A DNA stretch of 64,000 nt from a virus (Duplodnaviria > Heunggongvirae > Uroviricota > Caudoviricetes), in the IMG/VR virus record IMGVR_UViG_3300029288_000055, positions 234,764-298,763 of that record; one strand, 5' to 3'. Numbering within the stretch: the stretch's first letter is position 1; the number at the start of each line of letters is the position of its first letter. A program made the position numbers and the translations under genes. Shown piece after piece: positions 33,401 through 63,522 of this stretch. The notes beneath the pieces were generated by a model. It had not been told where the DNA came from, searched no databases, and worked only from the letters and a program-made list of their open reading frames with translations.

Positions 33401-34063
33401 ATGAGAACAAAAGTAAACAAGTCGCAACTGATGAAAAAAGCATGGCAACTGTTTAAAAATCAGCCTGTTAAGACTGACGAAAAGTTTGCCGAATGTTTAA
33501 GGTCTGCATGGCAAATTGCCAAAACTGCACCCTCAATTGAAAGTCTGTATAAGGCTCATTATCAGGCTCTTTACAACTTCATATTTTTGAAGTTACACAA
33601 CGTTGAAGTGTCACAAGAATTGACAAATGACGTGTTTATCAAAGCAAATCAGAACATGCACCTATATAATAGCGAAAAGTCGCAAATCAGTACTTGGCTA
33701 CATAACATAGCTAAAAACTTGGTTATAGACTATTATCGTGCCGACAATTCAGACAAATATATAAACGTGTCAAATTTCAATGATGCGGAAACAGGCAAAG
33801 AGGTTTATCAATTTGTTGATAGTCAAACAACTGACAGTATAATGGACAATAAAGAACTGTTAGCGAATGTTCAAAAAGCAATGTCCAAACTCAAACCAAA
33901 ATATCAGAAAGTCGCTGATTTATACTTCATTGCAGACAAACCTTACAATGAAATAGCTGAACTGTTGGAATTACCGCTTGGCAGTGTCAAAGGTATGGTA
34001 AACAGGATTAAAAGCATGTTAACAAGTCAGTCAGAACTACAATACCATTATCAGAACATGTAA
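33401..34063 (+). CDS. ECF (sigma-70 group 4) RNA polymerase sigma factor with short N-terminal extension
   Basis: Region 2: ELTNDVFIKA...STWLHNIAKNLVIDYYR. Region 4: LKPKYQKVADLYFIADKPYNEIAELLELPLGSVKGMVNR. Confidence 0.93.
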   Translation: MRTKVNKSQLMKKAWQLFKNQPVKTDEKFAECLRSAWQIAKTAPSIESLYKAHYQALYNFIFLKLHNVEVSQELTNDVFIKANQNMHLYNSEKSQISTWLHNIAKNLVIDYYRADNSDKYINVSNFNDAETGKEVYQFVDSQTTDSIMDNKELLANVQKAMSKLKPKYQKVADLYFIADKPYNEIAELLELPLGSVKGMVNRIKSMLTSQSELQYHYQNM

Positions 34064-34176
34064 GGGTATTGTACCCTTACATTTGCTTCTGTGCAATGTC
34101 CAAATTATAATGTCCATATATGCAACTTTCAATGTCCAAATTACGTATAACAGATATTAACCAATACCGCAAAGCA

Positions 34177-37100
34177 ATGAATGAAATAGGTGAAAAAATA
34201 GACGTTAAAACTGCTTCATGCAGGGAAATCTACATGCCAGACTTAATGGCATTGCTTAAGAGTGATATATTTAAATTCTGGTCGTGGGGTTCACATGCGT
34301 TGACAATTGACAACAAACGTTGTACCCGCATGTTTAGAATGACTGTTTCAGGTCATCATCACAAAGGTCATGTTTACATATTCTTATCAGGTGCAGACCT
34401 GTTTGAAGTGTACCTGACAAGTAATCAGGGAACTATCAGGGACAAAACTGAGGAAGGTTTGTACTTTGATATGCTTGTTGACTGGATTGATACAAGGGTT
34501 GAAAAAATACCTGACTATGTACGATAATTATTAACCACTAAATACGCAAAGCAATGAACGAAATTAAAATTACAACTACTCATACATTCAGTAAGGAAGA
34601 TATTTCTGACCTGATTGTAACAGCACTGGAAGGCGGAATAAACTACTGGTGCAGGAAGGCAAAGATCAAATTAGATACGGAAGGTAATTACTTCAATGTA
34701 CCAAAGGAAGATCAGGACAAAGTTATCTATGCCAGTGATGCAATTAGTTACGGTGGCACGCTGATATTGTTCGATGCTGAAAGTACAGACAAATGGGAAT
34801 TGAATCTGGAGAATGTACAGAAAGGTATTCAGATGCATTGTGAAAAGCGCAACATTGCACCCGCAGGATTGATGGACAACTATGATGCGGAAGATGCTGA
34901 TTGTATTGTACAGTATGCAGTCTTCAATGAACTGACGTTCGGATAAGAGTTTTTAATTAAAAATAGAACCCTCTGGAAGTAACAAACCAGAGGGTTTTTT
35001 CGTATAATAGAATGTACCAAAACAGAATGTACTATGGCAAAGAAACAGTTTAAAATCGGTGAATGTGCAGTCGGTGGAATCATTGCAGTGGAAGTCACTG
35101 GCAAAGTTATCCAGATCAAAGCACTTGATTACTATTCTAAGAAAGAGGTTTCCAGTGGTTCAGCAATGTCCGATGAACGGAATGTACAGTGGAAGCTCGA
35201 CAACTACCTGAATGATCTTACAACCAGTTATTACGCAGGTAAGATACTGGACTGGATTAAGACGAAAGTTAAATTTGATTACATATTCTAAAAACAGAAT
35301 GTACTATGCTACAAAAAGTAAACATTAACGGCTTCATATATTTTGCAGACGTTAACAATCAGGTTCTCTATACTGACAGAGATAAAAAATCAGGTTCACC
35401 GTTTTCATTCTTAACAAAGAATGAGAATGTACAATTGCAGAATGAACTGAGATTTCCACGTAAAGAAAAGGAAGAAGAATTGTAACCTTTCAACAGCAAT
35501 GTACGTATAAGAATTCTCTATATTCAATTAGTTTACAGGGGCGTTGTAGTTAACCAGACTACCGCCTCTTTTTCTTTGTAACCTTTTTAATTAAAACAAC
35601 GTATAAGCATTGTACCAAATACCAAACGCAATGAAAATACATGAAGCAGGAAACAAATTAATGGCAGAGTTTATGGGTTATGTACAGAGTTCAGTACATA
35701 ATGTATTTCTTCATTCAGCTAATCATGGGTTCAAAGGAACAAACGGTTATAAAGATGCTTTTATAAGAAAAGATCAGTACGATTTATTAACTGGATTTTA
35801 TGAATCAGGTCAACAAATTGAGATTGATAAGTTCTATGAGAGTACCAGAAATGTACGTGGTGAATTTGTTAACTCTACTTTGCCGTACATATTCAACGGT
35901 GTGCATTTATTTCTTACAGCATGGAATAACAGAAGTACACAACTGGACTGGATGCCTTGCAAACTGAAATACCGTGAAGACTGGAATAAACTTATGGAAG
36001 TTGTTGAGAAGATTGAAAGTCTTGGTGGTAATATAACTATCAAAGGTAACACTTGTGAGGTTATATATAAATTTGGTGGTATTGGTAATAGTAGTACCTT
36101 TGAAAAGAAAATTGATGCAGTATGGAATGCATGTGTTGAATATATCATATACTATAATAAGTGTGTGAAAGCGTAACATTTTTAATTAAAAACTCGTATA
36201 AGAGTTGTAACCAATAACCACAAACACAATGGCAACAACAAAATATGGTTTACCAGAAATACCAAGTGAATTTATTGAACCTTATCTGGTTAAGTTTTTA
36301 GGCAATATGATACAGTATGTTGCTTGTGCCAGTACCGAAGAAGATATTAAAAAGAATCATTGTGGCTGGACTGTTGGTGAAGTCAGGCAATGGCTCAAAG
36401 GTATGGAAGTATTTGTCAGTGAGTTTTGTGGCATTCATTCCCGCTATGCAATAAATAATGAAATTAATAGGTGGGACAAAATGACTGATGAACAATTAAA
36501 AGAACTTTGCGATAAAGTTATTAATGAAGTTGGCGTTGAATAATGAAACCTTTTTAATTAAAAATACGTATAAGACCTGTAACCAATATTAAACGCAATG
36601 AGAAAATTAATCGTGGAGTACAAAAAAGACTTTAAACCTTCAAAAGATGTTATGAGGGTTGGTAATGCAGTGATCATGTTTACTCCTGCAATTACAGAAG
36701 ACTACTGGATTATGCGCATAAAGCTATTCAGGAATCAGGCGTTGGTCGCCTTCCCAAAGTTCGGTTTGATAGGTGTAGGTTTTGCCAAAGAATCTGACTG
36801 GAATACAAACCTGCCTTATAACGTTTCAGCAGAGAAGTTATACAATCATATTGAGCGCAATAAGAAGTATGACCAGTTGACCAAAGAACGTTGCATAGAG
36901 GCTATTAAAATGCTTCAAGCTGCATGTAAGCAGTATGAGAAAGAAAAGGAAGAGAAAACTATCAACCTGAATATGAAAGAGGTTAACAACGTCATAATGG
37001 GTGCAATCAGCATGTCAGGTTTAAGGAGAGTAAGACAGATGCGTTATTCAAGAAACTAATAACCACAAAAATATGAAATCAATAATTGTAAAAAACATTA

Positions 37101-37731
37101 TGATTCAGTTTGATAGCTTTGATCATGGAGCAGACAAACATACAGCACTTGCAACACTTGATCGAATTAATGAAGTACTGCAAGAGAGATTCCCTGACAT
37201 ATCACCGCAAATCTTTGTAAATGCAATTGATGACGATGATATTGAAATTGCTGATCAAAAATAACCTGCAATACATTTTTAATTAAAACCATGTAACCTT
37301 TACATGGTTTTTTTCGTATAAGACCTGTAACCAATACCAAACGCAAAATGAAACAATCACTTAAACTTTTAAAAGCAGGATTTGAGAGTTCATGCTCAAC
37401 CACACCTGAATTTGCATCATTCTTCAGGACGTTCAAAAAAGAGTTCACCAAAGAATTACAAACAATTGGTGCAACTGAGATTGAGTTCAGCAGAGGTCAT
37501 TTTCATCTGACAGGATTTTTCAGGGTTGATGGTCAGTTATGGTATTTCAGTTTATCTGACGTTCGGGGAATGGATTATGGTTTGGCTAATCACCCTGAGA
37601 GTTGCATGAATAAACTGTTATACAGAACTGCAAAGCATAACAAAGATTGGACAGGCGGAAGTAACAGGTATGCAGTCATTGAATCAGGCATGGCACAAAA
37701 GATGTGTTGGAGTTTTAAACTCATTGATTGA
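34177..37731 (+). other. Cassette-like hypothetical CDSs (34177-34527, 34554-34946, 35034-35291, 35631-36176, 36229-36543, 36598-37059, 37073-37264, 37348-37731)
   Basis: Most follow an ECF promoter and an AACCAAT...AAACGCAATG-type leader. Confidence 0.7.
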
Positions 37732-37837
37732 AAATAATAATTGGTTTTTAATTAAAAAGGTTGCAGGAATGTAACCTTTTTTTGTTTATCATCGTATAAG
37801 AGGTATAAGAAAGAGAGGCGGAGTAAAATTCGGGTGC

Positions 37838-37890
37838 AGTAATCCAACCCTACCTTTATGTCTGAGTTTAGAATGATTCTAAATTATAAC
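37838..37890. repeat. About 52-bp repeat with a 17-bp inverted core TTTAGAAT-G-ATTCTAAA (second copy 40257-40308)
   Basis: Cores at 37867-37883 and 40285-40301; variant at 44865-44881. Confidence 0.85.
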
Positions 37891-37964
37891 GTTTTTAATT
37901 AAAAACTGTAACCTTTTTAATTAAGAGAACGTATAAGAGGTATAAACCAATTAAATTAAACGCA

Positions 37965-38846: not shown

Positions 38847-38863
38847 TCAATGTACAGAATAAT

Positions 38864-38893: not shown

Positions 38894-38949
38894 ATAACCT
38901 TTTTAATTAAAAGATCGTATAATAGTTATTAACCACTAACTTTAAAGCA

Positions 38950-40049
38950 ATGAATCTTTTCGGTAGCAAACAGACCAAAGGTTTACAGACATTCGAAGAA
39001 GTAAGAAACTATCTGAATAACATTGATAGCATTAATCGTGGTGGCTGTGGTATATCAGCTTTATCAATGTACAGGTGGCTTAAAAAACACGGTCAGACCA
39101 CAGAGCATACAGCGTTCTATTTTCTTGACAATGATTCAAGCAATCATGAGAACAATCAGGAATACTTCACCAATAAGGAAGTAGTATTAAGGGCAAGTTC
39201 TCATATAGTATTGCTTCACAATGATCAAACAATTGATTCCACTGGCTTTCATTCAATCAATGATTATGACTATAATTTTCTTGAAAAGAGTGAAGAGTAT
39301 TTACTCGCAATGATCAATAATGTATGGACGTGGAATTATAAGTTTGAAAGGAAAGCGCACGTTAAGAATATAGCCAAAACTCTTGGCATTAATTTGACAG
39401 ATGTACAAATAACTCATGCTTGGTGAAACCATTTTAATTAAAAACTCGTATAAGAGATATTAACCAATACATATACCAAATGAAATCAGAAATTACTGTA
39501 AGAACGCAAGGCATTAAAGGTGGCGATGCCAAATTTACCAATGTAGGCTGTACCACAGTCTATGCCACAGACAAAGGACAAACCAGAAATGATCTGGTTA
39601 TTGATCTGGACAGCTTCACTGGTTCTGGAAGAGATTACCAGAGAAGAGAAAATACTCTCATTAATATCACCTTTGAGGGTCAACCCGCTTTTAATGGCAC
39701 TATTCAACAATTGGTTGCCAAGCTCAATCCAAATGCTTTTTATAGCGGTAAAGCATTAAAGATTAAACGTATCAAAGACATTATTGCCACATGGGGAAAT
39801 GTTACTGATATGGAACTCGGACTTGATCATTCACCTTGTATTAATTCAATAGGTGAAAATGTTTGTCAGTTGGTTGAAGAATTTAATGCTGATTGTGTTA
39901 CAGCAGTCACCTATGATGACGACATTGAACTGGACAGAGACGACATTAACTATGAAGACCTGTCAGATGATCTTATAGACGAAATTGCAGACATCATTGA
40001 TGACTATGAAACTGATATGTTAAAAACTGAAAGTCGTTCTCAGGACTAA
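38950..40049 (+). other. Two hypothetical CDSs (38950-39426, 39480-40049)
   Basis: Each behind an ECF promoter; terminator 40073-40100 (AAACCCTGTAA-G-TTTACAGGGTTTTTTT). Confidence 0.7.
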
Positions 40050-40412
40050 GTTTTAATTAAAAACGAATGTACAAACCCTGTAAGTTTACAGGGTTTTTTT
40101 ATTACCAATTATCGGCAGCAAAACGATTTTTGCGCAAATTACACTATGTTAATTTGTCCCAAAAATAATCTAAAATAGGGACATTTTTGTAACCTTTTTA
40201 TTTAAAAATACGTATAAGAACTATAAACATCATATCTTAATCAAAAATTAAGAATTGTAATCCAATCCTGCCTTATACTCTGAGTTTAGAATGATTCTAA
40301 ATTATGCAACTATTGGCTGCACAATTATAAATAAATGATTTTATTTAAAGATATGTGGAACTATTATATTACTTTTATCGTATAAGAGACGTAACCAATT
40401 AAACCACAGCAA

Positions 40413-41249: not shown

Positions 41250-41338
41250 TTGATTAATTGCCCTGTATGTAACTATTACAGGGCAATTTTCGTATAAGCA
41301 ATGTACAAGTATTAACCATAACTAATAATAAAAATACT

Positions 41339-42661
41339 ATGAGCGACTTAACAAGACAAAAACAGGAAAAAGAGTTAATTAAAAAATGGGAAGCTGATAT
41401 TGCCCCAAAACTCGTTGGCAGAAAAATTACTGGATGTAAATACATGACTGAAAAAGAAATGGAAGGTCTTGGTTGGTATAGCAAAGCACTTGTTATAACC
41501 TTAGAGGGTAATGTTAAATTGTTTGCTTCAGCAGATGATGAAGGTAATGGCGCAGGTGCATTGTTCACCAATATCAGAGGACTTGAAACAATACCAGTAA
41601 TATAATGCGGTGAATACAATGGCTAATCTCATTAAATTGTGCGGTGATTAGCCATAATGTAACTTAATTTATTCAATGTACGTATAATGCAATGTACAAA
41701 TAACCATAAAAATGAAAAGAAATAATAAATGTACTAACGGATTAAAGATTCCCACTGGCTTAAAAGATAGCACAGGGAATGTACTAAATGAGGGTGACAA
41801 AGTTGCACCTTTCACTTATAATGAAATTCAAAAATTCAAAGCTGAATGGAAACAAACTCATACAGAACTTTGTGATGCTATGGGTTTCAGCAGAAAGCAT
41901 AATGAATCAGATGAACTTCTGGTTGGTGATTACTTCTGGATTGAAGCTGATAAAAAATGGTATCCAAAAACTCTCTCATTGTACACAAAAAGGGAACAAG
42001 CAATTGCAGACTGTTTAAGAAATAATGAATAACCAATGTACAAGTAACCACTTTAAATAAAAACATTATGAAGACAACAGACTTAATTAAGAAAATTGAT
42101 TTCACCACACTGAGAACTCAGAAAGGTACTTTAATTAAAATCATTGATGACCTTGAAAAAACAGGTCTGCACCCTGATCAGGAAATGGATTTAACTGGTA
42201 TACTCAACCTGATTGATGGATTACAGGACTATGCCGTTGATGTCATGGGTATGAATCCTATTACAGTATATGACTTCGAATTGGAAGAAGGAAGAACAGA
42301 TGTACAAAAAGTAAAAACAGTTATTCTCTGTGCAACCTGTAACGGTGATAACGTTTTAATTAAAACCAATAAGAAAGGTCTTTGTTGTGATTGTACAGGT
42401 GAACATAATATATACCAGACTAAACTTAAAGCTGATGCAAAAATCATTGGCTTTCAGGTTGTGGGTACAGCAGGGACTAATAAAGAAGGTCAAATACATC
42501 CAGACATGTTAAGCAGTTCTGCATTGTACAGCTTAAATCAGGCACGAAAGATGATTAAGAACAGAGAGACAGAAAACTGGAGCTTGCTTGCAATCTGGAC
42601 AGGTGACATTGAAGAACCAACAATAATGTTTAAAGGTAAACTAAGAACATTTAAGAAATAA
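41339..42661 (+). other. Hypothetical CDSs (41339-41605, 41712-42032, 42068-42661)
   Basis: ORF track; ECF promoters at 41269 and 41659. Confidence 0.7.
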
Positions 42662-43126: not shown

Positions 43127-43197
43127 TTATATTTGTAACCATAATGTACTAATGTACGTATAAGCTAATGTACGATAAGTACAGAGTTCTTTAAAAT

Positions 43198-43665: not shown

Positions 43666-43793
43666 TTAAAACCATTTTGTTTCCATAATGCACTATTTTT
43701 AATTAAAAACAGAAATAGAATATTTTAGCTCTGCAGTGTAACTTTTACTGCAATATGCTCGTATAAGAGCACATAACTAATAACCACAATACA

Positions 43794-44709: not shown

Positions 44710-44889
44710 TCAAACATATATAAATATTTTTGTAATATTCGTAACCTTTTAATGTACATTTGCGTATAAGGACTATGAAAAGATAACGAGACATATAGTC
44801 CAATAGTTATAACAGCCACTCCACGACTGAAATCAAGTAGACTCCAATATATTTTAATGTATAATCTTAGAACAATTCTAAATAACGCA

Positions 44890-45145: not shown

Positions 45146-45596
45146 AATAATTCAAAAATCTTATTAGGTGAGTACTTTTTATAAAATTTTATAAAATCGT
45201 TTTTGCTAAAAAAATTCGAGAGTGTCGAAGCGATGCGCAGGGGCAGACTTTACCCCCACTTTTACCCACAAATCTCCACTTTAGAACATCTTAATATTCT
45301 GAATATATTTTGTTCAGGGTATAACTACCTGATTATCAGTGATAGCAAAATGATATCAAAACAGTACAAAAATGACATTACAATATAGTTATGAGTACAG
45401 TAAAAGGCAGTTATAGTACATATAAACACTGACTATATTTATTATTGTTTTATTACATTATCATCAGTCAGAAACAAACAAAATTGTTTACACAGAATTG
45501 TTACTATATTACTATATGTGATAGCATATAATATGATTTTTCGTAACCTTTTTATATTCATTTACGTATAAGACATAACCAATTAAATTTTTTACA

Positions 45597-45914: not shown

Positions 45915-46249
45915 TTACATATTATAACAGATTGTTGTAAAATGCTTGAATTATTTTAACATAATTTTTCGTAACCTTTTTATATTCATTTACGTATAAG
46001 AACACTGACGAGAAAGAAATTAAATAAAGAAAGAGAAATAGCTATGAGTAGAAATAGTGAATCACAAATATATAACTTATCATTTCAGACTGACTTAAAT
46101 GAATCAATGAGAGTAAAGATAGAGGCACGTTCTTATAAGTCTGCTGTGAAAAAACTAATAAAAGAATATCCGAGTGCTTTTGATATTGATTAAATTGATT
46201 AATAAGTTTTATTTAAAACCAAATAGTAGTAACTTAACAAATAGTCATT

Positions 46250-48725
46250 ATGTATTACGAAATAAATGTTGCAAAGAAAGTGAAAAGAATTAATATACCA
46301 GAAAGGTATGAGCATTATTTCGCCACTGCACCGAGAAGTATTACTTTCCATTCAGAGGCTGTAAGTCTGCTTAAAGAGTTTATTAAGTTGTTTCCTGCGC
46401 CTGAATACGAAATAAGTGTTCATGAATATCCTGAACAATTCACCAGTTATTCACCAGAAGAATTTCTGAAAGAATTTGAGAATAAATAGTTTTAATTAAA
46501 AACATTTAAAAGAATTATAATATGAAAATCACAATAAAAATTCAACCTATGATATTAACTGCCACAAGTAAGAAAGAGGCAATTAGTAAAGTTAATGCTT
46601 ATGGCGTTTTGACATTTTCCAATTATGGCAGGTATCTTAATGGTTATAGTGAGAGAAAGAATGATATTGCCATTGTTGCAAACTATCAGGTACAGAACAG
46701 AAAGACCAAACAGGTCAAGAATCTTAAGACTGGTAAAACCAAATCAATCATTTTACGTGAGAAACTTTGGACTGTCAGAGTATATAGAATACCTATTGAG
46801 TTATTAAAAATTGGTAATCTGGTTGTGTTACAACGTCACAGGTATTTTGAGATTGTATCAAAAAAGAACAAATAATAATGTACTAATTTTAATTAAAACG
46901 ATATGAGTAATAAGAAAAACTATTTGTCCGAACCAAAAATGACTGATAAAGATTCATGGTGGACAGGGAAAAACAGGATAATGACCTTTGCAAGTTTGAA
47001 TGAGGCTCATACATACTGGCAAAGAATAAACAGTGGTGCAATACCTACTCCTGATAATATCAAGGACAAGGTTGATGAATTTGAACAGCGTTGTAAGAAT
47101 ATTGAGCAGATAATTAAAGAAGATACTGCAAAAATGCTTAATCATGACAAATTAATTGATGACATTAGAATACTAATGTCCAAAAAACTGGCATTGAATT
47201 GGGTACTTGGTGAAACTACATTTTTGTAATGTACAGTTTTTAATTAAAACGATATGAAAGCAAATAAGAAAGGTAAAATATTGATCAGGTACAGGGAGAT
47301 TGACAGAGAAAAATATCCTCACTTGCCTTATGAGCATGATCAGAAAATGGCTTACACAAAGAAGAATCTTCAAGAGATTATTGAAACTATATTGTCCAAC
47401 AGTCATACCATTATGATCAGACCTTATACTGTATTGGGTTTGACAACTGACACAGATCATTTGACTGTTTATATTGGCACAGGGAGAATGACATAATATA
47501 CTAATTTTAATTAAAACGATAATGTCCATAAAGAAACGTTTGAGAAAGATTGAGATAAGACTGGAAATATTTGCGTTGAATGTTTTTATGGGTATAGTTG
47601 CCACAAAAATTTATGTACTGATTTTCATATATAGAGTTAAGAACCTTTTTAAAGATGAAATGTAACTTATCATTGTCCGATTACGTATAAATGATATTAT
47701 GGATAAGCTAAGTAGAAATCAGATTAACATCCTTTTCGGTGAGAAACTTGACAGCACGATTTTCACATGGCTAAATTATTGTGGGACAAGAGGGGTTAGT
47801 GTCATTCATATATTTAATAATGATAATGGTTTATTCAATGTCCGTTTTGATTGCAGGGGTTGGTGTTTTTCTGATAGTTTGCTTAGTGGTTTTAGTAAGT
47901 CTTCTGGCATAGCTGTAATGCTTTGGGATAATGAAAAACTTGAAGATGTTTGGTGTCATATATCGGATGAATTTCAGATTACATTATTCAGAGGATTTAA
48001 TTTAAGAACAGGTAAATAATAATTTTAATTAAAACAATTGTAAAATGAATATATATGAAAGAATAGCGAAAATTGTATTAGGACTATCAGCAATATTCTT
48101 TGGAGTAAGGCTGATGTATTATTTGGTTCATTACAATAAAATAATGGATATACCAGAAGGTTTATCTTTTGTTGGATTTATGTCAATGTGTATGTTGCTC
48201 TTATTGGGTGTATTTTTAATTCTTTGGGCATTTGAAGATAAATTAAATAAGTAATTTTAATTAAAACTATATATTATGAAAAAAATTGGATTTATTGTAA
48301 AGACTGATGCATACGCAGGTAATTTCGAAAGAGAAATGTGTGCATATATGACAGGGCAGATTGGTGAGTGTGAGGTTGGTAAAAGTTATGTTGATCAGGA
48401 AGAAAAATCTTTACTGGATAAGTTGTTTCATAATATTCTTTCTTTACCTGATGATAATGGTTGTTACAGACCTGTATCTATATTGTCGGGCGATACGTAT
48501 TTCGATTTAAAAATGCCACAGAATGAAAAATCTAATTCTCTGGTGATTTATTTCGATGATCAACTGACAGAGGTACAAATTGAAGAGTTGAAGAAACGAG
48601 CATATGAATTTCCACAGGTATGGGAAGATAATCGTCATGTATATGTGAAGCACTCCAGATTGGTTAAGGTTCTTGGCTTCATGATTGTTGAAAATGAAAC
48701 AACTTCAAAAATAATTATCCTATAA
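46250..48725 (+). other. Hypothetical CDSs (46250-46489, 46522-46875, 46903-47229, 47254-47496, 47699-48019, 48045-48254 membrane, 48276-48725)
   Basis: Most junctions carry TTTTAATTAAAA. Confidence 0.7.
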
Positions 48726-48783
48726 TTTGTAACCTTTTATATTCATTTACGTATAAGCATATAGAAAACGTTCTTTGCAAACA

Positions 48784-49089: not shown

Positions 49090-49091
49090 AA

Positions 49092-49328: not shown

Positions 49329-49388
49329 TTTGTAACCTTTCATTATCAATTTACGTATAAGAGATATGTTTAACTAATAATAGATAAC

Positions 49389-50251: not shown

Positions 50252-50428
50252 TAATTCTGTTGCGAAAAATAAAAATGTCGTTCTGTTGAATAACATTTTT
50301 GCCCTGTGCCTTCGATGAACCTGAGTAAGTGAAGAAGGACAGGGATTTTTGTAACCTTTACAGGGTTTTTTTCGTATAAGAAGTAGTTAATTGAAATATT
50401 TTTATTATTAATCTTACAAACAAAAGCT

Positions 50429-53400
50429 ATGTCTACGTTTAAAAGATGTCCAGTAGTTCTATTAGATCAACAGAGAGAAACCTGTGTAGGTTTAATCCAA
50501 TGTATAAAAGATTGGAAAAGTTTCATACTTCCCAAAGAAGATTTTAAATTTGTCGGTGAATTATCATTTGGTAAAAACATATCTGATGGTGTTTTTGAGT
50601 TTTGGAAACCGATGGCTATATATATTCTCAGCAACGACAAAAAGGATATTCATGATGGTGATTGGGTTTATTTTGATAGTAGCATGAATGAAAGTGGTTA
50701 CAAAGGTTCTGGTATCTGGAAATATTTTAAATCATCATGTCCTACGCCTTATTCGGGCAATATAAAATATTGCAAGAAAATAATTGCAACTACAGATGAA
50801 ACACTTAATTTGCCCTGTCCGTCAAAGTCTTTTGTGATGAAGTATATCACAGAATTTAACAAAGGTAATGTTATTACTCATGTTCTGGTTGCTTATGAAT
50901 ATTTTGATGCTTCAACAGATTATTACGATAATGGTTGTGGAGACGAAAAATTAAAATTAAGACTTATAGTATCTAATTATGATAATACTATTACAATTCG
51001 TAGTATAAAAAATAATTACACTGAGGCTGAACTTATTAATGCGTTGATTGACTTTGCTAAAAATATTGATACTGTCGATAAACAAATACATCCTGAGAAG
51101 TATATTAAAGCATGGATTGAAGAAAATCTGATTTATCCTTTTTAATTAAAAATATTTGTGTAACTTTTGCAGAATAATTAACGTATAAGTGATATGAAAG
51201 ATTTAATTGAAGATATAAACGCATTGCCAGTTACTTACAAAGCTGAGAATACTTGGGTTAATAAAAGGCTTGTGCCTGTAAGTATTAAACTGGTTGAACT
51301 GGATAAGGTTATTGAATTACTGAAACATAATCCAGTAAATGACTTCATAAGGGATATCATAACTGATCTGGAAAATCTTTCAAATGATTATCGTGCAACA
51401 AGTGATGGCAGTAAAACTGAATATGTTATTGACAAAGCTGATCTTGACGCATATATTCAGCAACTTAAAGACAGAATATTATAATATCAAATAATACTAT
51501 TATGAAAGCATACTACACAAACGCAGACAATTTTACAACCTTAGTTGGTGAGAGAGTTTTACTTCACCAGAAGAACGGTGGCTGTTATGCAGGTAAACTT
51601 GTGAGAGAACACAAGCATTTATACGATAAGAAATACATGGATAGTATTGTATTTGTTGGTTTTTGTCCTTTTCATCTTGATCTGGAAAACAACAATCCGC
51701 ATAATTTCAGACAGCAATTTGAAAACGCTTACACTGATGCAGATGCTCTAAATTACAAAACAGCAGGGTATATTGCTGATGAAAACGGTGAAAATAATGA
51801 TAATAATAATTTCATTATTGAATACAATGATAATCTTAAACTTTGGGATATTATTCTCAAAGAAAATAAAGAAAATTTTGAGCCAGAGAAGGCAAGAATG
51901 AAAAAAGAATTTAATGAAAGGTTTGAGTTACGAGAGATAAGATAATAAGATTAAATGATATTATTATGAAAACAGATTTAACAACAGAAGCTAATTTATA
52001 TACTGGTTATTTCGCAAATGAAAAAACCTTTACTCAGGTTCATATTGTTAAAGACAATAAACCTATATGTGGAGCGAATATCGGAGCAGATAAAAAATTT
52101 CAACTTAATGCTCATGGTGTTTTCAAGAGTTATCTTGAATGTGAGCATTGCAGAAAGAAAATTGCAAAGATTATGAAAAAAATACTTAATCCAGACATCA
52201 AATTAGAAGCAGGAACTATTGTAAAACTCAAAAGAAAACCTACAAATGAAAATAATGCAACTGTTGTTTTCAGAGGTATAAAATCAGTTGATTATAAAAA
52301 GAAAATAATTAGTTGTGATGATAATATTGATTATAAATTCAAAGATATTATTTCGAAATAGTTTTATTTAAAAATATATATTATGAAAACTAATATTGAA
52401 AATAAAAAATTTATAACAGAAGTAGTTTCAAAAAATATTACATTTCCTTATTATGGTTGGTGGTCACATAAAAAAGAAGAGATTATCAAAATGTATCCTG
52501 AATATTATGAACACGACAAATCATTATTAAAACGTATTGTGGTTGTGAATATCAAAATGGGTTGGAACACTGATACAGAAATCAGAAAGGATTTTATCAC
52601 TGTATCAAATAATGTGATTAGTTCAGAGATACAAACATATCTCAGGGATTATGCAGATCAGGCAACAGAAGCTGAATTTCTTGAATTTCGTAATAAGGCA
52701 ATAATAGATTTAATATAATTATTTGGTGTTGGTGAGTATCAGATAATGAAATAATACTTATCTTTACATATTAAAATTTAAATGATAAGATTTTAATTAA
52801 AACTATACATTATGAATTCAATGAACGAATTACCAATGAATATGACAAGAGTATTTGTTTTATTTTATCAGACCAATGTTTTTGAATTTGCTGATTTTAA
52901 AGATGGATTATTTCAAATTGGTGAATATTGGTATCAGCCTTCTGATTTTAAAGGATGGTTATCAATTAAAGATTTAAAAACTGTACTTGAAGTTTTTTAG
53001 TTAAACATTTTAATAATGTCTTGTGTTTAATAAAATTATGTGTTATTTTTGTAAAAAATAAATTTTATTTAAATCATAATGTATGAAAAATTTTAATGAA
53101 TTAAAAGAAAAAATAAAAAAAGAAGAAGAAAAAATAAAAGACAAAACATTTGCCCTTACACAAAAAGAAATAATAATAAATCAAGCACAAATATATAGTG
53201 ACGTTAATTGTATTCTTATATTATTAGAAAAAATGGCAAAACAATTAAATATTGAAATAAAAGATGATGATGGCAATATTATTTCAATTGATGATTATTG
53301 TGATTTAATAAAAAAAGATATGTTTTATACATTTTGGGAATGTCATGAAAAATAAATAAATTCTAATTTATTTATTAAATCCTGTAACATTTACAGGATT

Positions 53401-53752
53401 TTTTCGTATAATACCTAATTACAAATGCTAATATTTTTAATTAAAAACACATATTATGCAAACATTTATAGAATCTTTTGAATTACAGGTTGATGAAAAA
53501 ACAAACGGTGCAGTTATTCGCATTAATGATATCAGAGGTTGCAGGATAAGAATCTGTGGAATACCTAAAGAACTTGTATTTGATGAAAAGGGAGAAGTAA
53601 GATCATTCATTGATATTACATATCCAAAGCAATTGAATGCTTATGAACGTACAGCAAAAGCAATTGAATTGATGACAGATATTGCTGTAAAATCTAAATC
53701 TGCAATAATTACAATTGCACAGAAGAATCCAAAGAAATCAAAGAAAAAGTAA
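50429..53752 (+). other. Hypothetical CDSs (50429-51145, 51194-51484, 51502-51945, 51966-52361, 52383-52718, 52812-53000, 53083-53355, 53456-53752)
   Basis: ORF track, consistent strand and leaders. Confidence 0.7.
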
Positions 53753-53804
53753 CTTTATCTGGTTGTTTTACGTATAAGTATTATAATCAATAAACAATAA
53801 CAAC

Positions 53805-55619: not shown

Positions 55620-58605
55620 ATGGAAATAGTTAAATTTGTTTATTGTAATAAAGAATATTATTTTAAAGAACATTTAATTTTTACAGGTACTACAGATTTT
55701 AATGAAGAAAAACGTGATGAAGTATTTATAAAATTTATTCATAATAAAAATAGTTATGATTTAAAAGAATATTGGGATTTATCTGATAAAGAATTGCTTG
55801 ATAAAATGATAATAAAAGAATTGTCCAAACCTATTACCTTTCCTAAATTTGATAATGAACATTCTTTTCAAATAAAATTTAATGGTAAAACAATAAAAAA
55901 TCCAACAATAATTTCAATAAGATGGTCTGGATATATTTGGGAGTATAGAATCAAAAATATTGGACATGAATATGATTATCAACCAGAAAGTAAATTAGAG
56001 AAAATATTTTGAATATTAATTTTAATTAAAACAACAATATTATGAGAACAAAAATTTTTACATACAAAGGTGTTATCGGAGCAGAAACCGATTTAGACAA
56101 CGGTAAATTTCTCAATAGTCCCAAAGATGGTGGTCAGTTGGGTTGTGTTATTGACACAAAAGAAATTGACATTACCAAAGAAGCCAAAGAACTGATTAAG
56201 TCAGCACCAAAAGAAGGTGGCAGTTTTGCACCCATTATGTTGACAAAACATAGTGATGGTAGCGGTTCATCTGTTGGTCTTATGGGATTCTGGAAACATT
56301 TATTTGCAGGAGATGAACTGTGTATTGGCAGAACTTGTGAAACATCTGTACTGGATGATTGCAACGAAATCGAGATTGAAATTCCCGAAGAATTTAAAAA
56401 AGTTGTGGATGCTAATTTTTAATTAAAATCAATATCTATGAGAATTAAGAGTAAGTTTAAACCAAAGAAAGTAAAGCATCACAGGAATTGGAAAAACATA
56501 TCGTTTGTTGACCCATTTACTGGATTCTTTCATACTGGCAGATATCGTCTGGATGAAATTAATCTACTTGAACGGTTTGTTGAGGTAAAGATACTTAAAT
56601 AGTTAATTATGAACAAAGAAGAATATTTAAAAAAGAAAGGCATAATTCATGATGATCTTGGATTAATGTATTTTACTTATTTCAACAAAGATAAAAATGT
56701 TGTAAGTAAATTTGCTATACCAATACGCAAAATATCACAATTTAAGTATACAAGTTATCCTGAGAATGGAAAACCTGTTGAACATACAGGTACACATTAT
56801 ACATTTAATGAAGCACCTTATGAGATTGATTTTCATGAAAATGAAAATTCTGGTGTTAATGAAGGATGGGCAAGTGGATTCGGTGATTTGCTTCGTTGGT
56901 GTTACTTTGGATTCTATAATCCTACAAGTCAGGATGATAAATATAATAAACTGTTAGAAGAACAGAAACATTGGAAAGAACAAGAAGATAAAGAAATTAT
57001 AATGCCATCAGCAGAATAAATATTATGGTAAGAATTATGGTAAGATATTACGATAAAAACGGTAAATCTACTGGTTGGTTGTCAGACAAACCAAAAGAAT
57101 ATGAATTAAAGAGATTGACAATTGATCAATTACAAATAATTGCTAAAAGAAAGAAAGGATTAAAAAAGATTCTTATTGAATTTTTAATGAAGTCGTAACC
57201 TTTTTAATTAATAATACGTATAAGGGTTATAAAGTATTAACTAATAATTACTACGATGCCAAAAATGTTCATGAGAGTTAAAGACAGTCAGACTAAGAAA
57301 GTATATTACTTTCAGTGGTCAACAATAAGTGATTCACCATGTAGTGATGCTGTTGAAACCAATGATTTTGATGAACTTCATCACCAGATAAGTAGAAGCA
57401 AATTCAAAACCAGTGTTGAATGGGCAGAGGCATTCGCAAGAGATAGAATTCAACTTGGTAAAACTAATGTAAGTAATCCTGAGTATACAAGAAAAGAATT
57501 ACTTGCATGTAGTGATGAACATAAAACTGTAAACAGTTTAATTGAATATTGCAAGGCGAATATTGTAAAATATTAATTATGAGTGTACAATCAAATAGTA
57601 AACATTACGAAGCCTATTACAAACAGGTTTTAGATGGCAAAAGAGTAAAAGATAAAACTCTGGCTAAAGTCTTTGATATAATCACTGATCTTTCAGATAG
57701 ACGTGGATTACGTCAAGAGTGGGAACAAATTGATGGTGATATTCAGGACGAGATCATTGAAAAATGGAAGGAAATTATTGATAAAGAATAATATTATGGC
57801 AATAACTAAAGATGACAAGACGGGTTTAGTTTATATTGATGAAGTACCTTTCACAAAAACACATTTAAAAAAGTTACGGAAACTTTTCAAATATGCAAAG
57901 AAGGTTTGCAACGGTCAATTTAAACATGTGGTTGTAATCACAGACACTGAAAATCAGCCAAATGAAGGTGTGACTAAAAGTGTTGTGATTGATCAAGCAC
58001 TAATCAACGACATTTTTAAACTGTATGATCTTAAAAAGATAGCAAGAGACAAACGATTCACAAAATAAGAAAAATTATGAAAAACTATCAAAATAGATTC
58101 GATACTGATATGTCATTTGTTGATTCAATGGTTAATGAAACCAATGAACAAGATTTACCAGATGATGTATTCACACAGGCGTGTGATGAATTTGGTTTGA
58201 GTGAAGAAGATGCAATGGGATTAATGGTATTATCCACAAAGTATCAATTTCACAGAATTGAACACGGATGGTTTATAACAACGAAATAATATGACAAATT
58301 GGATAGACTTTGAAAGGGATGATCTGAATGCTATACCAAAGGCATTTGATAAGGGATGGCTACCTGAATTTGATTATAAGGACAAAAGATATGGGAGATT
58401 TACTCCTGATAATATACCAATGAATTGTGTCAGTTTTAAGAAAGGGAATAAGTATACGTGGAAAATATACCACATATCTTTACCAAAAGAAAATGAAGTT
58501 TGGGGTGATCTGTCTGAACTCTGGCGTGTGGCTGACTTGATTGATAATCATTATTGCAATCACAGGACTTATAATACAATTCAAGAAGTTTTTGAAAAAG
58601 AGTAA
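55620..58605 (+). other. Hypothetical CDSs (55620-56012, 56042-56422, 56438-56602, 56609-57019, 57256-57576, 57579-57791, about 57796-58068, 58077-58289, 58291-58605)
   Basis: ORF track plus 56438-56602 read by hand. Confidence 0.65.
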
Positions 58606-58654
58606 CCTTTTTAATTAAATTTACGTATAATAATCATAACCAATAATAAAGACA

Positions 58655-59104: not shown

Positions 59105-59111
59105 TAGTGAT

Positions 59112-59794
59112 ATGGCAAAAGTAAAATACATAAAGACAAAGGATAATCAGATTATTGTATTTGGTGAATACTATACTCATGATCAATTCAAACACTTTAA
59201 ACCAATCAGTGCGGGGTTTATATGGTTTGGTACAGTTGCACACGGTGAGCCATCTTGCACCTGTTATGGCGAGAGTATTTCACTTGGCTTGAAAGCTGAT
59301 GAAAAAGTTGATACTGAACTGGCAAGAAACCAAATTTTAGGTTACGGATACTTTTAATTAAAAACGATGGCAACACATATACGCACATATTATGATTCTA
59401 TAAATGATGTTACTGTTAAATTTCGCAGTGATGCAAAACAATCAACAATTACTGCACTTGAATTTAATGGTGAATGGTATATTGTGAAGCATATCTTAGA
59501 AGATTGGGGTTATATAGTTATTGAATGCCCTGCAAGCAATTGAAAACATATAGCAAAGATATTAACGTTTATTGTGATGCACAGAAAGATGACTGCTACT
59601 GTTGGCATGAAGGTTCTGTAACATTACAATGGTGGCAAGGCAAAAGCATTGCATTTAAGATACTCAAAGCTACTGGTTGGATATTAGGCAAAGAGAAAGA
59701 TATTTGTCCTTATTGCTCAAAAGGGATTAAGCAATTCAATTGCACAACCGATAAAAGCGATAGAGAATTAATTAAAAATGCTAATAAAGTGTAA
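59112..59794 (+). other. Small hypothetical CDSs (59112-59357, about 59367-59549, 59525-59794)
   Basis: ORF track and hand reading. Confidence 0.55.
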
Positions 59795-59886
59795 CTTTTC
59801 TAAAATAGTTTACGTATAATAATCTCCAAAACATTCAAAATTTAGGATAAATTAGGAATAATTAGTAATAACTTAAAGCAATAAAA

Positions 59887-60435
59887 ATGAAGAAAATTTT
59901 TGGATTACTTTCGATTATGATGATCAGTATGTTTATAATGACATCATGTGATTACACCACACCGAAATCAAGTTCAGGTGTTGAAAAAGCTACTATTCAG
60001 GTTGCTACCGATGCAAATGGTAATAGTGTTGAACAGAAAAATATTATGGAGAGATTGACCAGAGATAATAAACCGGGTTCTATAAAGCACCTATACGTTA
60101 TTTCTACTTATTCAGGACAGGTACTGATCTATTCAACTGTTAATGGTAAAGTAACTTCTGCAAGTAAAAGATTAACACCTTCAACTATTAGTGGTACTGG
60201 TGGTACTGGTGGTATTGGATTTTATATAAAGATTGGTGATGTTAATGCATTTACACAAGAAGTTCTTGGTGATGACGGTTCTTATGGTTCATCAGACCCA
60301 TATATTTATTGGTTCGATGTTAAGGGAGTATATCATCAGCATTATTTGTCAGGTGGTCAGATCATACATATATCAGATCAACCTCTTGCAGTTAAAAATG
60401 TTGTACTTAACATGGAATTGACCGATGAAAAATAA
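59887..60435 (+). CDS. Putative lipoprotein
   Basis: MKKIFGLLSIMMISMFIMTS-C; GKVTSASKRL; WFD..G.YHQ. Confidence 0.75.
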   Translation: MKKIFGLLSIMMISMFIMTSCDYTTPKSSSGVEKATIQVATDANGNSVEQKNIMERLTRDNKPGSIKHLYVISTYSGQVLIYSTVNGKVTSASKRLTPSTISGTGGTGGIGFYIKIGDVNAFTQEVLGDDGSYGSSDPYIYWFDVKGVYHQHYLSGGQIIHISDQPLAVKNVVLNMELTDEK

Positions 60436-60865: not shown

Positions 60866-61115
60866 ACTTTTTTACAAATTTGTTTTTTTCTACTTTTTTA
60901 CTTTGATTAACTCCAACGGGACATTACGTTGGAGTTTTTCTTTTATAGTCAGTTACAAACAAGACAACATATGTTTTTAATTAAAAACGATTAATAAATT
61001 AATTATACAGGTGTTTTTATTTAAAAAAGAATTATCTGTTATTTTGTAACTAATCCAAATATATTTCGTATAATTGCATAGAAATAGATTTATTATTAAC
61101 CAACAAAAAGCAATT

Positions 61116-63452
61116 ATGAAATACAGCGTTAACCAAGTTGAAGAAGTTGATTTACTGACTACCACAGTAGAAGAAGACATGACCTTATCAGAAGATTCGA
61201 CAGGTCTTATCTTTCAAATATTCAGTAAGAATATCTATTCTAATCCAATTGGTTCAGTTGTCAGAGAGATAACCAGTAATTGTTTTGATAGTCATGTTGA
61301 AGCAAAAACTGACTTTCCAGTTGTTATCAGAAAGAATTTTGATAAATTGAACAACAATTACAGCATATCATTTATTGACTTTGGTGTAGGTATGTCACCT
61401 GAAAGGATTAATAAGATATATCGTAAATATTTTACCAGTACTAAAAGAGATGGCAATGATCAGATAGGATGTTTTGGGTTGGGAAGCAAAACACCTTTGG
61501 CTTATAAACGTTCAACAGGTTATGGTGTTGACGAATATGATAATTCATATCAGGTTATTACAACTTTTGATGGTATTAAGTATTCATATTTAGTTTATGA
61601 GGGGCAAAACAAATTTCCGAAAATAACATTACAAGATCAGCAATCAAGTAAAGAAAGTAATGGTACAGAAGTACTTGTACCTGTATTGGCAAATGACATT
61701 TACAAGTTTGAAAGAGAAATGATCAAACAGTTATATTACTTTGAGAATGTGATTTTTGAAGGCTTTGATGAAATATTAAGTGATGGTACTGTAAATAAAA
61801 GTGAACTCACCAATGAGTACCAAATTGTACGTGGTAAAAACTTTCTTTTCAGAGGCAACCAATATTCAGATTATATGCATATCTGTTTAGGCAGAGTAGC
61901 ATATCCAATTGATTACGGTGTACTCGGTTTGGAAGGTAAGGATTACAGAATACCAATTGCATTAAGACTTGAAGTTGGTGACATTAACGTGATTGTTTCA
62001 AGGGAATCAATTGACTATTCTGAATCAACAATCAAAATGATCACGAAAAAACTTGAACTTGCTAAAGGTGAAATAAAAGAGTTACTTGCAAAACAGTATG
62101 AGAATGTTGTATCACTGGAAGATTATTTCAATGTTAAGGCAGATTTTGGCAGGTTGCAATTTACTAATGGCGAATCAATTTTTGTTGGTAATTTGATCAG
62201 CAAGAATGATGTTGATTTTTCGAATTTTAAATATTCTGAACTAATTGTTATGCCTGACGATAAGAATTTATTCAAATTCTTTTTCGAAAACAAATTGTAC
62301 GGCAAGAAACCGAGCGAATCTGGCAGGAGAAGGAGAAAAAAATTTACTAATCTCGAACCAGTATCCCCTTATTTTGAAGGTGGTTATGAAGATTTACTTA
62401 AGAATAATGCAAATGTATTTTATTGTGATGGCGAATTTACTCGCAAAGTGTTGAAACAAGCATACCTGAAAGCAACTTATGGTACATTCTTTATTGTAAC
62501 CAAAGAACAACTAATGTACGCAGTACGTAAAGATATTGCTGATTTGTTTCATAATTCATTGGATACATTAACAGATGACAAAGGTCAATTATTACCTTTC
62601 GTACAGATGCTTATTGACATGCAAGAAGATTACTTTGAGATTGTTCGTAAGCATTGTACACATTATGATGACATTGTTGTACCTGAGAGTTTTGTTATCA
62701 CTCGTAAGCGTGCAGCAATTACAGCAGAAATGCGTAACACCACAATACCAGTGAGAATATTTAACGAACGTGGTTGTGATAAACAGGAGAGAATTAAATT
62801 AGATCAGTTGTTTAATTTCAAAGAACCGATTTATTATTGTACTAAAGAAAATAAAAATGAAATGCAAAATGCGGTTCGTGTATTTACCACACTCTTTACT
62901 TCAGAAGCAATTGTTGATGATTACGATTCATATAAAAATGTATTCAGACATAGTGGAAAGAAGAAAATTATGTTCTTGGTTTTATCTACAAATAATCTTA
63001 AGTATTTGGAATTTTGCAATGATGCACGTCCAATTAATACGATATATCAAAAACTATTTTATCGTAAAGCAGATGCAGTCAGCAATTATTTTCAGACTTA
63101 TGAATTGATCGAAGAATATAAACAAATACCTTCACTTTACAGGCATGCAAGTTTCGAAAGCATTAATAAAAAATGGTCTGACAAAGTGAAAACGGTAAGA
63201 GATTTCATTAGTGGTTTGAAGTATCTGAATAGTAATCTTGGTAATAATAAATATGAATTGAATAAATATTTTAATACTGAGAGTATGGGTTTAACTCCAG
63301 AACAAAAGAAAATTAAGAACATTATGCAGGAAATTAATAAACTGCATGAAAAGAATGATACTATTTTAAGTTTCATCAATTTGCCTTATCGTACAAGTGA
63401 TACGATGGAAGATAAATTGGTTGATATATTAAAGAAAGTGATGATATTTTAA
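61116..63452 (+). CDS. rIIA: rIIA-like protein (GHKL/Hsp90-type ATPase N-terminus)
   Basis: IYSNPIGSVVREITSNCFDSH, DFGVGMS, STK...NDQIG.FGLGSK.PLAY, NGTEV.VPV. Confidence 0.8.
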   Translation: MKYSVNQVEEVDLLTTTVEEDMTLSEDSTGLIFQIFSKNIYSNPIGSVVREITSNCFDSHVEAKTDFPVVIRKNFDKLNNNYSISFIDFGVGMSPERINKIYRKYFTSTKRDGNDQIGCFGLGSKTPLAYKRSTGYGVDEYDNSYQVITTFDGIKYSYLVYEGQNKFPKITLQDQQSSKESNGTEVLVPVLANDIYKFEREMIKQLYYFENVIFEGFDEILSDGTVNKSELTNEYQIVRGKNFLFRGNQYSDYMHICLGRVAYPIDYGVLGLEGKDYRIPIALRLEVGDINVIVSRESIDYSESTIKMITKKLELAKGEIKELLAKQYENVVSLEDYFNVKADFGRLQFTNGESIFVGNLISKNDVDFSNFKYSELIVMPDDKNLFKFFFENKLYGKKPSESGRRRRKKFTNLEPVSPYFEGGYEDLLKNNANVFYCDGEFTRKVLKQAYLKATYGTFFIVTKEQLMYAVRKDIADLFHNSLDTLTDDKGQLLPFVQMLIDMQEDYFEIVRKHCTHYDDIVVPESFVITRKRAAITAEMRNTTIPVRIFNERGCDKQERIKLDQLFNFKEPIYYCTKENKNEMQNAVRVFTTLFTSEAIVDDYDSYKNVFRHSGKKKIMFLVLSTNNLKYLEFCNDARPINTIYQKLFYRKADAVSNYFQTYELIEEYKQIPSLYRHASFESINKKWSDKVKTVRDFISGLKYLNSNLGNNKYELNKYFNTESMGLTPEQKKIKNIMQEINKLHEKNDTILSFINLPYRTSDTMEDKLVDILKKVMIF

Positions 63453-63522
63453 GACTTTCTTTTGTAACATTTCAACATCAATTTACGTATAATATAATAA
63501 TGTTAATTTAAAAATAAATCAA

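Follow-up and report, generated by a model that had tools for sequence, protein, structure and literature searches.

An ECF-type sigma factor of a T4-like jumbo phage heads an array of promoter motifs identical to the rpoD promoter of Flavobacteriaceae

Phage sigma factors and sigma cascades are already known from T4, SPO1 and phiEco32. T4 pairs gp55 with the late promoter TATAAATA and uses MotA/AsiA for its middle genes; SPO1 deploys gp28, then gp33/34. Every T4-like ('group 2') jumbo phage encodes sigma factors, as noted by Iyer et al. 2021 (PMC7824862). In the Kuravirus phiEco32, gp36 is a phage sigma of the extracytoplasmic function (ECF) family that binds the host RNA polymerase (cited in PMC7881722). 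Phage ECF sigmas were left out of a large ECF classification (PMC7826278). Promoters of Bacillus subtilis SigW have the form TGAAAC-N16-CGTA, with a T-tract beside the -35 box (Gaballa et al., PMC5758882). Here we describe a 64,000-nucleotide stretch of viral DNA (the window; IMG/VR record IMGVR_UViG_3300029288_000055, positions 234,764-298,763), in which an ECF-type sigma gene, whose product we call sigma-A, heads an array of bipartite promoter motifs. The window is part of a 362,763-bp contig (C1) with a guanine-plus-cytosine (GC) content of 30.5%. This contig had been grouped in a 1.27-Mb bin (a metagenome-assembled genome) whose other contigs have a GC content of about 36%.

Exact copies of GTAAC-N16/17-CGTATAA number 30 in the window (29 plus-strand, one minus-strand), whereas 100 dinucleotide-preserving shuffles of the window contained none. 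A one-mismatch search added exactly five sites, all with a 17-nt spacer (N17) and with changes confined to letters 1 and 2 of the -35 box. The motif search exactly reproduced the count in a first-pass annotation of this DNA, namely 35 copies (31 N17 and 4 N16, the latter at 11109, 48729, 53384 and 61046), 32 of them past the sigma gene (Table 1). The regulon of 35 promoters proposed on that basis holds for the window but not as a limit, as the whole 363-kb contig contains 63 sites (58 exact and five first-box variants). Their extended consensus is T-GTAAC-(C/T)-TTT...(T)(A/T)-CGTATAA-(G/T). A tail of weaker ECF sites was rejected: beyond the 63, intergenic AAC-N16/17-CGTA was found 5 times, against 13 in the reversed control. 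Such an all-or-none pattern is consistent with the single-base promoter stringency of ECF sigmas (Todor et al., PMC7776599).

The position of the sites was then compared with the genes of C1, as called by a simple in-house caller. Among 64 candidates, 63 were co-oriented with the next called gene and 60 were intergenic; the lone misoriented one is a one-mismatch match within the capsid gene. The earlier observation that the sites point with the adjacent gene or RNA, including the one on the minus strand, is thereby extended to the whole contig. Measured from the last letter of the motif, start codons lie most often 24-28 nt away, and another set lies 5-8 nt away; the spacer between the boxes is fixed in length and free in sequence. 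The AAC/CGT arrangement had been read as classic ECF grammar; intergenic place, co-orientation and fixed distance to the start codon agree with this, and it is almost certain that the sites are genuine ECF-type promoters. Could they instead be repressor-binding, recombination or replication sites? For promoters, the 12 fixed letters vary unusually little, and many copies overlap terminator hairpins. Strict co-orientation, the fixed start-codon distance and a spacer conserved in length only argue the other way, as does identity with an experimentally mapped promoter (see below), and the stringency itself is known for ECF sigmas (PMC7776599). We regard this alternative as highly improbable.

Genes with the motif ahead of them encode rIIA, DUF932 and GP88 proteins, a GmrSD_N-domain protein, a polymerase-like protein and many small ORFans. 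Their median size is 127 aa, and about a third of the C1 genes are served by this promoter class. The genes served look early/middle and non-structural. The DUF932 promoter and its leader (37908..37936) are kept in six orthologous loci.

Sigma-A is encoded by the open reading frame (ORF) at 33401-34063 on the plus strand (220 aa). Its first-pass identification as an ECF-type sigma factor is supported by profile searches. Region 2 matches PF04542 (Sigma70_r2, E 1e-10, residues 49-115). Region 4 matches PF08281 (Sigma70_r4_2, E 9e-8, residues 156-205) and aligns with region 4 of SigW. The protein scores 84 bits on TIGR02937 (sigma70-ECF, cut-off 42.9) over residues 46-208. No Sigma70_r3 or r1 match was found in Pfam, and size and architecture are those of an ECF sigma. 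Against solved structures, the family profile retrieved SigW (5wuq) over its full length with E 6e-27 and 97.6 bits, the next structure scoring 61.8 bits.

SigW of B. subtilis is the best solved full-length homologue of sigma-A, and the two systems share AAC, a T-tract, a spacing of 16-17 nt and CGTA. Region 2.4 is near-identical, with NLvID in sigma-A and NLtID in SigW. However, overall identity is only about 25-30%, and sigma-A has an N-terminal module of about 45 extra aa and no RsiW-type anti-sigma neighbour. In addition, the -35 box has T as its second letter in the phage and A in SigW promoters, and the setting is a phage instead of an envelope-stress regulon. The N-terminal extension (residues 1-45, 33401-33535), which precedes region 2, is conserved as NKSQ.MKKAWQLF...EC...AW; it matches phrog_8305 (small phage proteins), not region 1.1.

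Relatives of sigma-A were found 55 times in metagenomes, with 40-91% identity. Ten metagenomic loci whose sigma is 40-88% identical carry 3-20 exact motif copies each. These copies begin immediately past the sigma gene, and the 10 kb upstream have none on the same strand. All ten loci place the sigma gene after a divergent 190-194-aa gene and before a set of small genes, DUF2958, DUF932 and GP88 among them. An alignment-based scan of IMG/VR yielded seven more jumbo-phage loci (sigma 36-44% identical), which retain GTAAC-N16/17-CGTA followed by lineage-specific tails, TAA, TAC, ATA/ACA or TTA; a single-protein search with sigma-A confirmed no locus. No such array accompanied a 25%-identical sigma. 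Five jumbo-phage records, four of them 100% complete and one 51% complete by CheckV, were searched whole and contained the core motif 43-63 times, against 2-8 in the control. In total, sigma gene and promoter array go together in more than 15 related phage loci, and the motif is linked by synteny to the sigma gene in all relatives. Such arrays occur over a range of 36-91% sigma identity. From this position at the array head in every relative, together with the likeness to SigW, we infer that sigma-A reads the motif.

On its gene content, C1 is a T4-like jumbo phage. It encodes a Gp23-type major capsid protein (PF07068, 218 bits, contig 170.6-172.3 kb), a large terminase and a virion protein, as well as a primase, a gp46/47-like nuclease-ATPase, a ribonucleotide reductase and a DNA ligase. 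C1 gave no RpoB-type polymerase match and carries two sigma genes. Gp23 capsid, phage sigmas and the lack of a phage RNA polymerase are the features of the T4-like ('group 2') jumbo phages. The standard genetic code suits the contig, coding density being already 87% under code 11. Stop-codon recoding was rejected despite a tRNA with a CTA anticodon, because TAG readthrough alters coding density little. A megablast of 12 kb against a phage collection gave no match.

A word-enrichment scan of the C1 upstream regions lacking the ECF motif uncovered a second motif, (A)GTATTTAT(A)nnAA. Its 85 intergenic copies (in the window for example at 2832, 8245, 16518, 19144 and 27181) have no -35 element and lie 15-25 nt ahead of start codons. 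It precedes the large terminase, the virion protein and the Gp23 capsid operon; judging by these positions, the late genes use this class, which resembles the T4 late promoter type. The two motifs are near-exclusive. GTATTTAT occupies 1-265 kb of C1, and the ECF motif is concentrated at 260-362 kb, on the plus strand up to 311 kb and on the minus strand beyond. In the five records searched whole, GTATTTAT is 1.5-2.4 times commoner than its control, and in at least one of them both motifs occupy separate territories, as on C1.

The second sigma gene lies outside the window, at contig 33,804-34,505 on the minus strand (locus L011:3804-4505). Its product belongs to the ECF superfamily (69 bits on TIGR02937). 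In this protein the linker is long and region 4 weak, region 2 being the only part matched by most family models. It is conserved (45-61% identity) in all five records. The gene adjoins a primase and a gp46/47-like gene, which is also the neighbourhood of T4 gene 55. Because its region 4 is weak and divergent, this sigma fits a promoter without a -35 box, and it probably reads the late motif GTATTTAT. We also considered the swapped assignment, in which the bipartite motif belongs to the second sigma and GTATTTAT, or another sequence, to sigma-A. Both proteins pass the ECF superfamily model, the I-D residues of region 2.4 are common to both, and GTAT is present in both motifs. The swap nevertheless appears improbable. 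It is the second sigma whose weak region 4 and long linker suit a promoter without a -35 box, and its gene stands beside the primase and gp46/47-like genes, far from the array; sigma-A, with its complete SigW-like region 4, heads the array in all relatives.

With T4 and SPO1, C1 would share temporal classes defined by promoter type. The likeness to T4 includes a Gp23 capsid, rIIA, a late class with a single AT-rich, -10-like box, and a putative late sigma gene beside gp46/47-like genes. Unlike in T4, the early/middle class would be served by a full ECF sigma and not by sigma appropriation; an AsiA family search gave no match, but neither did its control. Unlike in T4 and SPO1, the promoter classes of C1 occupy almost separate halves of the genome.

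To characterize the host, the promoter grammar of C1 was analyzed. The bipartite host-type element TTTG-N18-22-TAnnTTTG occurs 46 times against 17 in the control, and 17 times against 2 (reversed control) in intergenic regions. No excess of TTGACA/TATAAT (sigma-70-type) promoters was found on C1, and sequences resembling a Shine-Dalgarno (SD) site precede only 3% of its genes. TTTG/TAnnTTTG promoters and starts without Shine-Dalgarno sequences are what a Bacteroidota phage should display. On the strength of this grammar, the lack of a sigma-70-type excess and the few SD-like starts, the host is of Bacteroidota type, and it is probably Flavobacteriaceae-like. The remainder of the bin was rejected as host. 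The closest proteins to its primary sigma come from Minisyncoccota (Patescibacteria), TTGAC...TATAAT is enriched on its contigs, and its GC content differs (30.5% for C1 versus about 36%). The phage motif is wanting there, with a single site among the other 37 contigs, on the 4.8-kb fragment C32. C1 is a binning contaminant in a Patescibacteria bin. Contigs C2-C38 otherwise form a Patescibacteria-like genome of about 0.9 Mb. Contig C6 (60 kb, GC 30%, 55% SD-like starts) is unlike both this genome and the phage.

Host-type elements are also found around the sigma gene. The -7 element noted in the first pass was confirmed as the box TATCTTTG, which is equally placed in relatives L001, L003, L010 and L022, and TAnnTTTG words are enriched upstream of C1 genes. 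Three host-type promoters of the form TTTGCACAG...TAnnTTTG stand before divergent genes for a UvrD-like helicase, a 190-aa protein and a GIY-YIG endonuclease (helicase and GIY-YIG by Pfam). The GIY-YIG gene (32544-33245, minus strand) separates the sigma gene from the divergent 190-aa gene and carries one of these promoter copies. It is probably a homing-endonuclease insertion, since relatives have no such gene at that place. Upstream of the sigma-A gene there is also a degenerate ECF-like element, and relatives L001, L007 and L010 have xxAAC-N16-CGTTTAA or CGTTAAA directly ahead of the -7 box. With low confidence, the element at 33254..33281 may be a weak autoregulatory promoter or a site for a host ECF sigma. 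The exact motif was absent upstream of the sigma-A gene here and in every relative examined. No anti-sigma gene was recognised next to sigma-A. Neither Pfam nor PHROG gave a match for the ORFs at 34177-34527 and 34554-34946, and the neighbour downstream of the sigma gene varies in length among relatives.

The phage motif is the conserved promoter of rpoD in the host clade. In Flavobacterium psychrophilum, the main mapped 5' end of rpoD, at position 804213, lies 31 nt ahead of the gene, after tGTAAC-N17-CGTATAA, and corresponds to the 7th nucleotide after the motif, with 6 nt between (tables of PMC9723704). Guerin et al. 2021 (PMC9723704) list expression from this start under every condition. 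A Band-7 gene of the 'SM6 / SigECF' class has GTAAC-N16-CGTATAA (PMC9723704 tables), and other SM6 promoters of this species are looser (CGTTTAT, CGTCTTA and others; PMC9723704). Over 61 Flavobacteriaceae genomes, 87 exact matches were obtained against about 85 in the reversed control (hand tally), showing no overall excess. All 10 fetched Flavobacteriaceae sites were located 39-50 nt ahead of a 287-aa RpoD. In an unbiased sample (loci L147-L175), the exact motif was present within 120 nt upstream of 23 of 29 Flavobacteriaceae rpoD genes. Four more had a one-letter variant, GAAAC, CGTATAC, CGTATTC or CGTATTA, and CGTATAC and CGTATTA are tails that also occur in some phage lineages. The F. psychrophilum and phage promoters agree fully in boxes and spacing. 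The difference lies in number, with about one exact copy per genome in the host and 63 copies in the phage.

These data change two of the first-pass claims. The motif had been set apart from the TAnnTTTG promoters of Bacteroidota; its grammar is of ECF type as stated, but it is not foreign to Bacteroidota since it matches a mapped rpoD promoter. The proposed use of the sigma and its promoters as an orthogonal expression tool for Bacteroidota is not supported as regards Flavobacteria, because host rpoD has the identical promoter, which a host sigma very probably recognises. The search for this host ECF sigma gave best matches with only 25-31% identity to sigma-A, and a crude filter gave one comparable ORF; F. 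psychrophilum possesses seven ECF sigmas. With host ECF sigmas this distant, sigma-A was not captured recently from these hosts.

We favour, with fair confidence, the interpretation that sigma-A, made from host-type promoters, runs a large early/middle programme at the bipartite motif. A phage ECF sigma in this role had been proposed in the first pass; the sigma, its link to the array and the early/middle-looking genes stood up to analysis. The phage sigma may not be the sole reader, and the outcome named there as refuting, promoters firing without it, may partly apply. Several observations weigh against the interpretation. Some host sigma, presumably of the ECF type, reads the identical rpoD promoter in uninfected cells, and the phage promoters may thus not need sigma-A at all. 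The -33 half of sigma-A's own host-type promoter is poor. The sigma-A gene has neither clear autoregulation nor a neighbouring anti-sigma gene, which are classic ECF features; autoregulation and a co-transcribed anti-sigma are typical of ECF sigmas, not obligatory. Finally, a second ECF-type sigma is present, and both sigmas share the I-D pair in region 2.4.

The first of these points leads to a distinct explanation, in which the host ECF sigma of rpoD is the main or only reader of the motif, the sites are true early promoters that work without any phage protein, and sigma-A does something else, such as competing with host sigmas or reading another motif. The mapped rpoD start with an identical motif, on in all listed conditions, is in line with this, as are the exact motif ahead of 23 of the 29 rpoD genes, the host variants CGTATAC and CGTATTA that equal those of some phage lineages, and the presence of classic early genes such as rIIA among those served. 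Such a mechanism would leave unexplained why sigma-A heads the array in every relative and why it is SigW-like with a matching promoter grammar. Moreover, 63 strong sites would swamp a sigma that has about one exact site per genome (87 in 61). We consider it unlikely.

With sigma-A as the main reader, the following sequence of events can be proposed. Host RNA polymerase with its housekeeping sigma would transcribe a small node at about 31.7-34 kb of the window, including ORF 33401-34063, from TTTG/TAnnTTTG promoters. Sigma-A would then join the host core polymerase and start transcription at the 63 near-invariant sites, tGTAAC(y)TTTT...CGTATAA with 16-17 nt spacing. By analogy with host rpoD, initiation is predicted about 7 nt past the motif, giving leaders of about 20 nt or leaderless messages; because of this predicted start, the group with 5-8 nt between motif and start codon would be leaderless or nearly so. 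These promoters would serve the early/middle part of the programme, with rIIA, DUF932, GP88, small ORFans, some DNA enzymes, tRNA-like elements and small RNAs. The late genes (capsid, terminase and virion proteins) would be expressed from the single-box (A)GTATTTAT(A), read by the second ECF-like sigma. Given that rpoD has this very promoter, the phage sites can probably also be fired by a host ECF sigma, which would do so from the start of infection, with sigma-A then amplifying and sustaining their activity.

A more tentative extension is that the phage family copied the host rpoD promoter. Since the host must keep its rpoD-reading ECF sigma active, about 60 phage promoters would fire when the DNA enters and could not be silenced without silencing rpoD, before sigma-A takes over and amplifies. 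We see this as a possibility well short of an even chance. If true, phage lineages with CGTATAC and CGTATTA tails would track hosts with the same rpoD variant.

Among described phages, phiEco32 resembles this system in that a lytic phage's own ECF-type sigma redirects the host core polymerase, as we propose here, with no obvious anti-sigma partner. The differences are several. C1 is a 363-kb T4-like jumbo phage with a Bacteroidota-type host. Both its sigma and its promoter follow the canonical pattern (SigW-like, AAC/CGTA), while the literature calls the phage ECF subgroup an outlier. The promoter class of C1 would serve early/middle genes, that of phiEco32 middle/late genes. C1 also has a second phage sigma, and its promoter is identical to a host promoter. 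A literature search turned up no description of this phage family or its promoters, nor of the identity with the rpoD promoter.

About 10 of the 63 promoters lie within or abut the terminator hairpin of the preceding gene. In the window, compact terminator-promoter cassettes were observed at 34964-35007, 37278-37321, 41254-41297, 50336-50379 and 53370-53411; in their hairpins the -35 box is placed in the loop or the 3' arm, and the T-tail leads into CGTATAA. After 18 of the 63 promoters the leader contains AC(C/T)AAT, often as ATAAACCAATAA, against a background of 5%. The F. psychrophilum Band-7 promoter likewise continues with CCAATA.

Some of the promoters precede RNA elements without ORFs. 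Three tRNA-like elements with a GGTTCGA(A/T)TCC T-arm (43198-43323, about 49040-49100 and, on the minus strand, 18323-18451) are each located downstream of an ECF promoter; ARAGORN calls none of them a tRNA. In Rfam, only three tRNAs reached the gathering score, and weak sraA and tmRNA matches were below threshold. Two short ORF-free transcripts behind ECF promoters contain a repeat of about 50 nt, GTAATCCAAyCCT...CTGAGTTTAGAATGATTCTAAATTAT, at about 37838-37886 and 40257-40305. This repeat is also found in the related phage L007, at about 14790-14830. Dense (T)TGTAC(G) repeats fill 44880-45150. An ECF promoter precedes the roughly 770 ORF-free nucleotides in which they lie, and the cluster may be an iteron array, an origin or a binding-site array.

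The palindrome TTTTAATTAAAA was found in 49 copies on C1, 39 of them intergenic, when about one is expected from base composition (in the window for example at 33264-33277, 33334-33347 and 43697-43710). It is often located just ahead of terminator hairpins or in promoter spacers, and contains stop codons in several frames on both strands. A role as an operator specific to ECF promoters was rejected, with only 5 of the 49 copies inside them.

Table 1. Promoter elements in the window (window coordinates; ECF, GTAAC-N16/17-CGTATAA or the -35 box variant given).
Position	Strand	Element	Spacer	Context
1629..1657	+	ECF	N17	ahead of ORF 1675-1962
11109..11136	+	ECF	N16	ahead of ORF 11167-12171 (PHROG 24943, DNA polymerase-like)
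18476..18504	-	ECF	N17	ahead of tRNA-like RNA (~18323-18451) and ORF 17484-18134
31708-31739	-	host-type, TTTGCACAG...TAnnTTTG		
32478-32509	-	host-type, TTTGCACAG...TAnnTTTG		
33215-33246	-	host-type, TTTGCACAG...TAnnTTTG		
33254..33281	+	degenerate ECF-like, GTAAC-N16-CGTTATT	N16	upstream of sigma-A gene
33353..33360	+	Bacteroidota-type -7 box (TAnnTTTG), TATCTTTG		40 nt ahead of sigma-A ATG
34122..34150	+	ECF, GCAAC	N17	ahead of ORF 34177-34527
34979..35007	+	ECF	N17	-35 box in loop of preceding terminator hairpin; ORF 35034-35291 next
35482..35510	+	ECF	N17	then ORF-free transcript of ~60 nt ending in hairpin and T-tract
35578..35606	+	ECF	N17	ahead of ORF ~35631-36176
36173..36201	+	ECF	N17	ahead of ORF 36229-36543
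36545..36573	+	ECF, GAAAC	N17	ahead of ORF 36598-37059
37293..37321	+	ECF	N17	inside terminator hairpin; ahead of ORF 37348-37731
37771..37799	+	ECF	N17	ahead of small ORF-free RNA (repeat copy 1, ~37838-37886)
37908..37936	+	ECF	N17	ahead of DUF932 gene 37965-38846
38894..38922	+	ECF, ATAAC	N17	ahead of ORF 38950-39426
39425..39453	+	ECF, GAAAC	N17	ahead of ORF 39480-40049
40189..40217	+	ECF	N17	ahead of small ORF-free RNA (repeat copy 2, ~40257-40305)
40357..40385	+	ECF, GGAAC	N17	ahead of GP88-family gene 40413-41249
41269..41297	+	ECF	N17	inside terminator hairpin; ahead of ORF 41339-41605
41659..41687	+	ECF	N17	ahead of ORF 41712-42032
43135..43163	+	ECF	N17	ahead of ORF-free RNA with tRNA-like element (43198-43323)
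43738..43766	+	ECF	N17	ahead of ORF 43794-44564
44741..44769	+	ECF	N17	ahead of ORF-free stretch of ~770 nt, TGTAC repeat-rich
45543..45571	+	ECF	N17	ahead of ORF 45597-45914
45971..45999	+	ECF	N17	spacer same as at 45543; ahead of small ORF ~46045-46193
47662..47690	+	ECF	N17	ATG of ORF 47699-48019 8 nt past motif, near-leaderless
48729..48756	+	ECF	N16	ahead of ORF-free RNA of ~570 nt with tRNA-like T-arm
49332..49360	+	ECF	N17	ahead of ORF 49389-49937
50351..50379	+	ECF	N17	inside terminator hairpin; ahead of ORF 50429-51145
51160..51188	+	ECF	N17	ATG of ORF 51194-51484 5 nt past motif, leaderless type
53384..53411	+	ECF	N16	inside terminator hairpin; ahead of ORF 53456-53752
53749..53777	+	ECF	N17	ahead of ORF 53805-55055
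57195..57223	+	ECF	N17	ahead of ORF 57256-57576
58602..58630	+	ECF	N17	ahead of ORF 58655-59104
59791..59819	+	ECF	N17	ahead of ORF 59887-60435
61046..61073	+	ECF	N16	ahead of rIIA homologue 61116-63452 (phrog_612, E 3e-60)
63464..63492	+	ECF	N17	ahead of ORF 63523-63921

As for applications, orthogonality of the sigma and its promoter is improbable in Flavobacteria, though it may hold in Bacteroidota without the rpoD motif. For the biology of these hosts, the identity of the two promoters raises the question of which host ECF sigma transcribes rpoD, and whether phages exploit that circuit. For the phage family, the complete transcription plan of a large uncultured phage would be readable from its sequence, with a host-type node, an ECF class, a T4-like late class and two sigmas.

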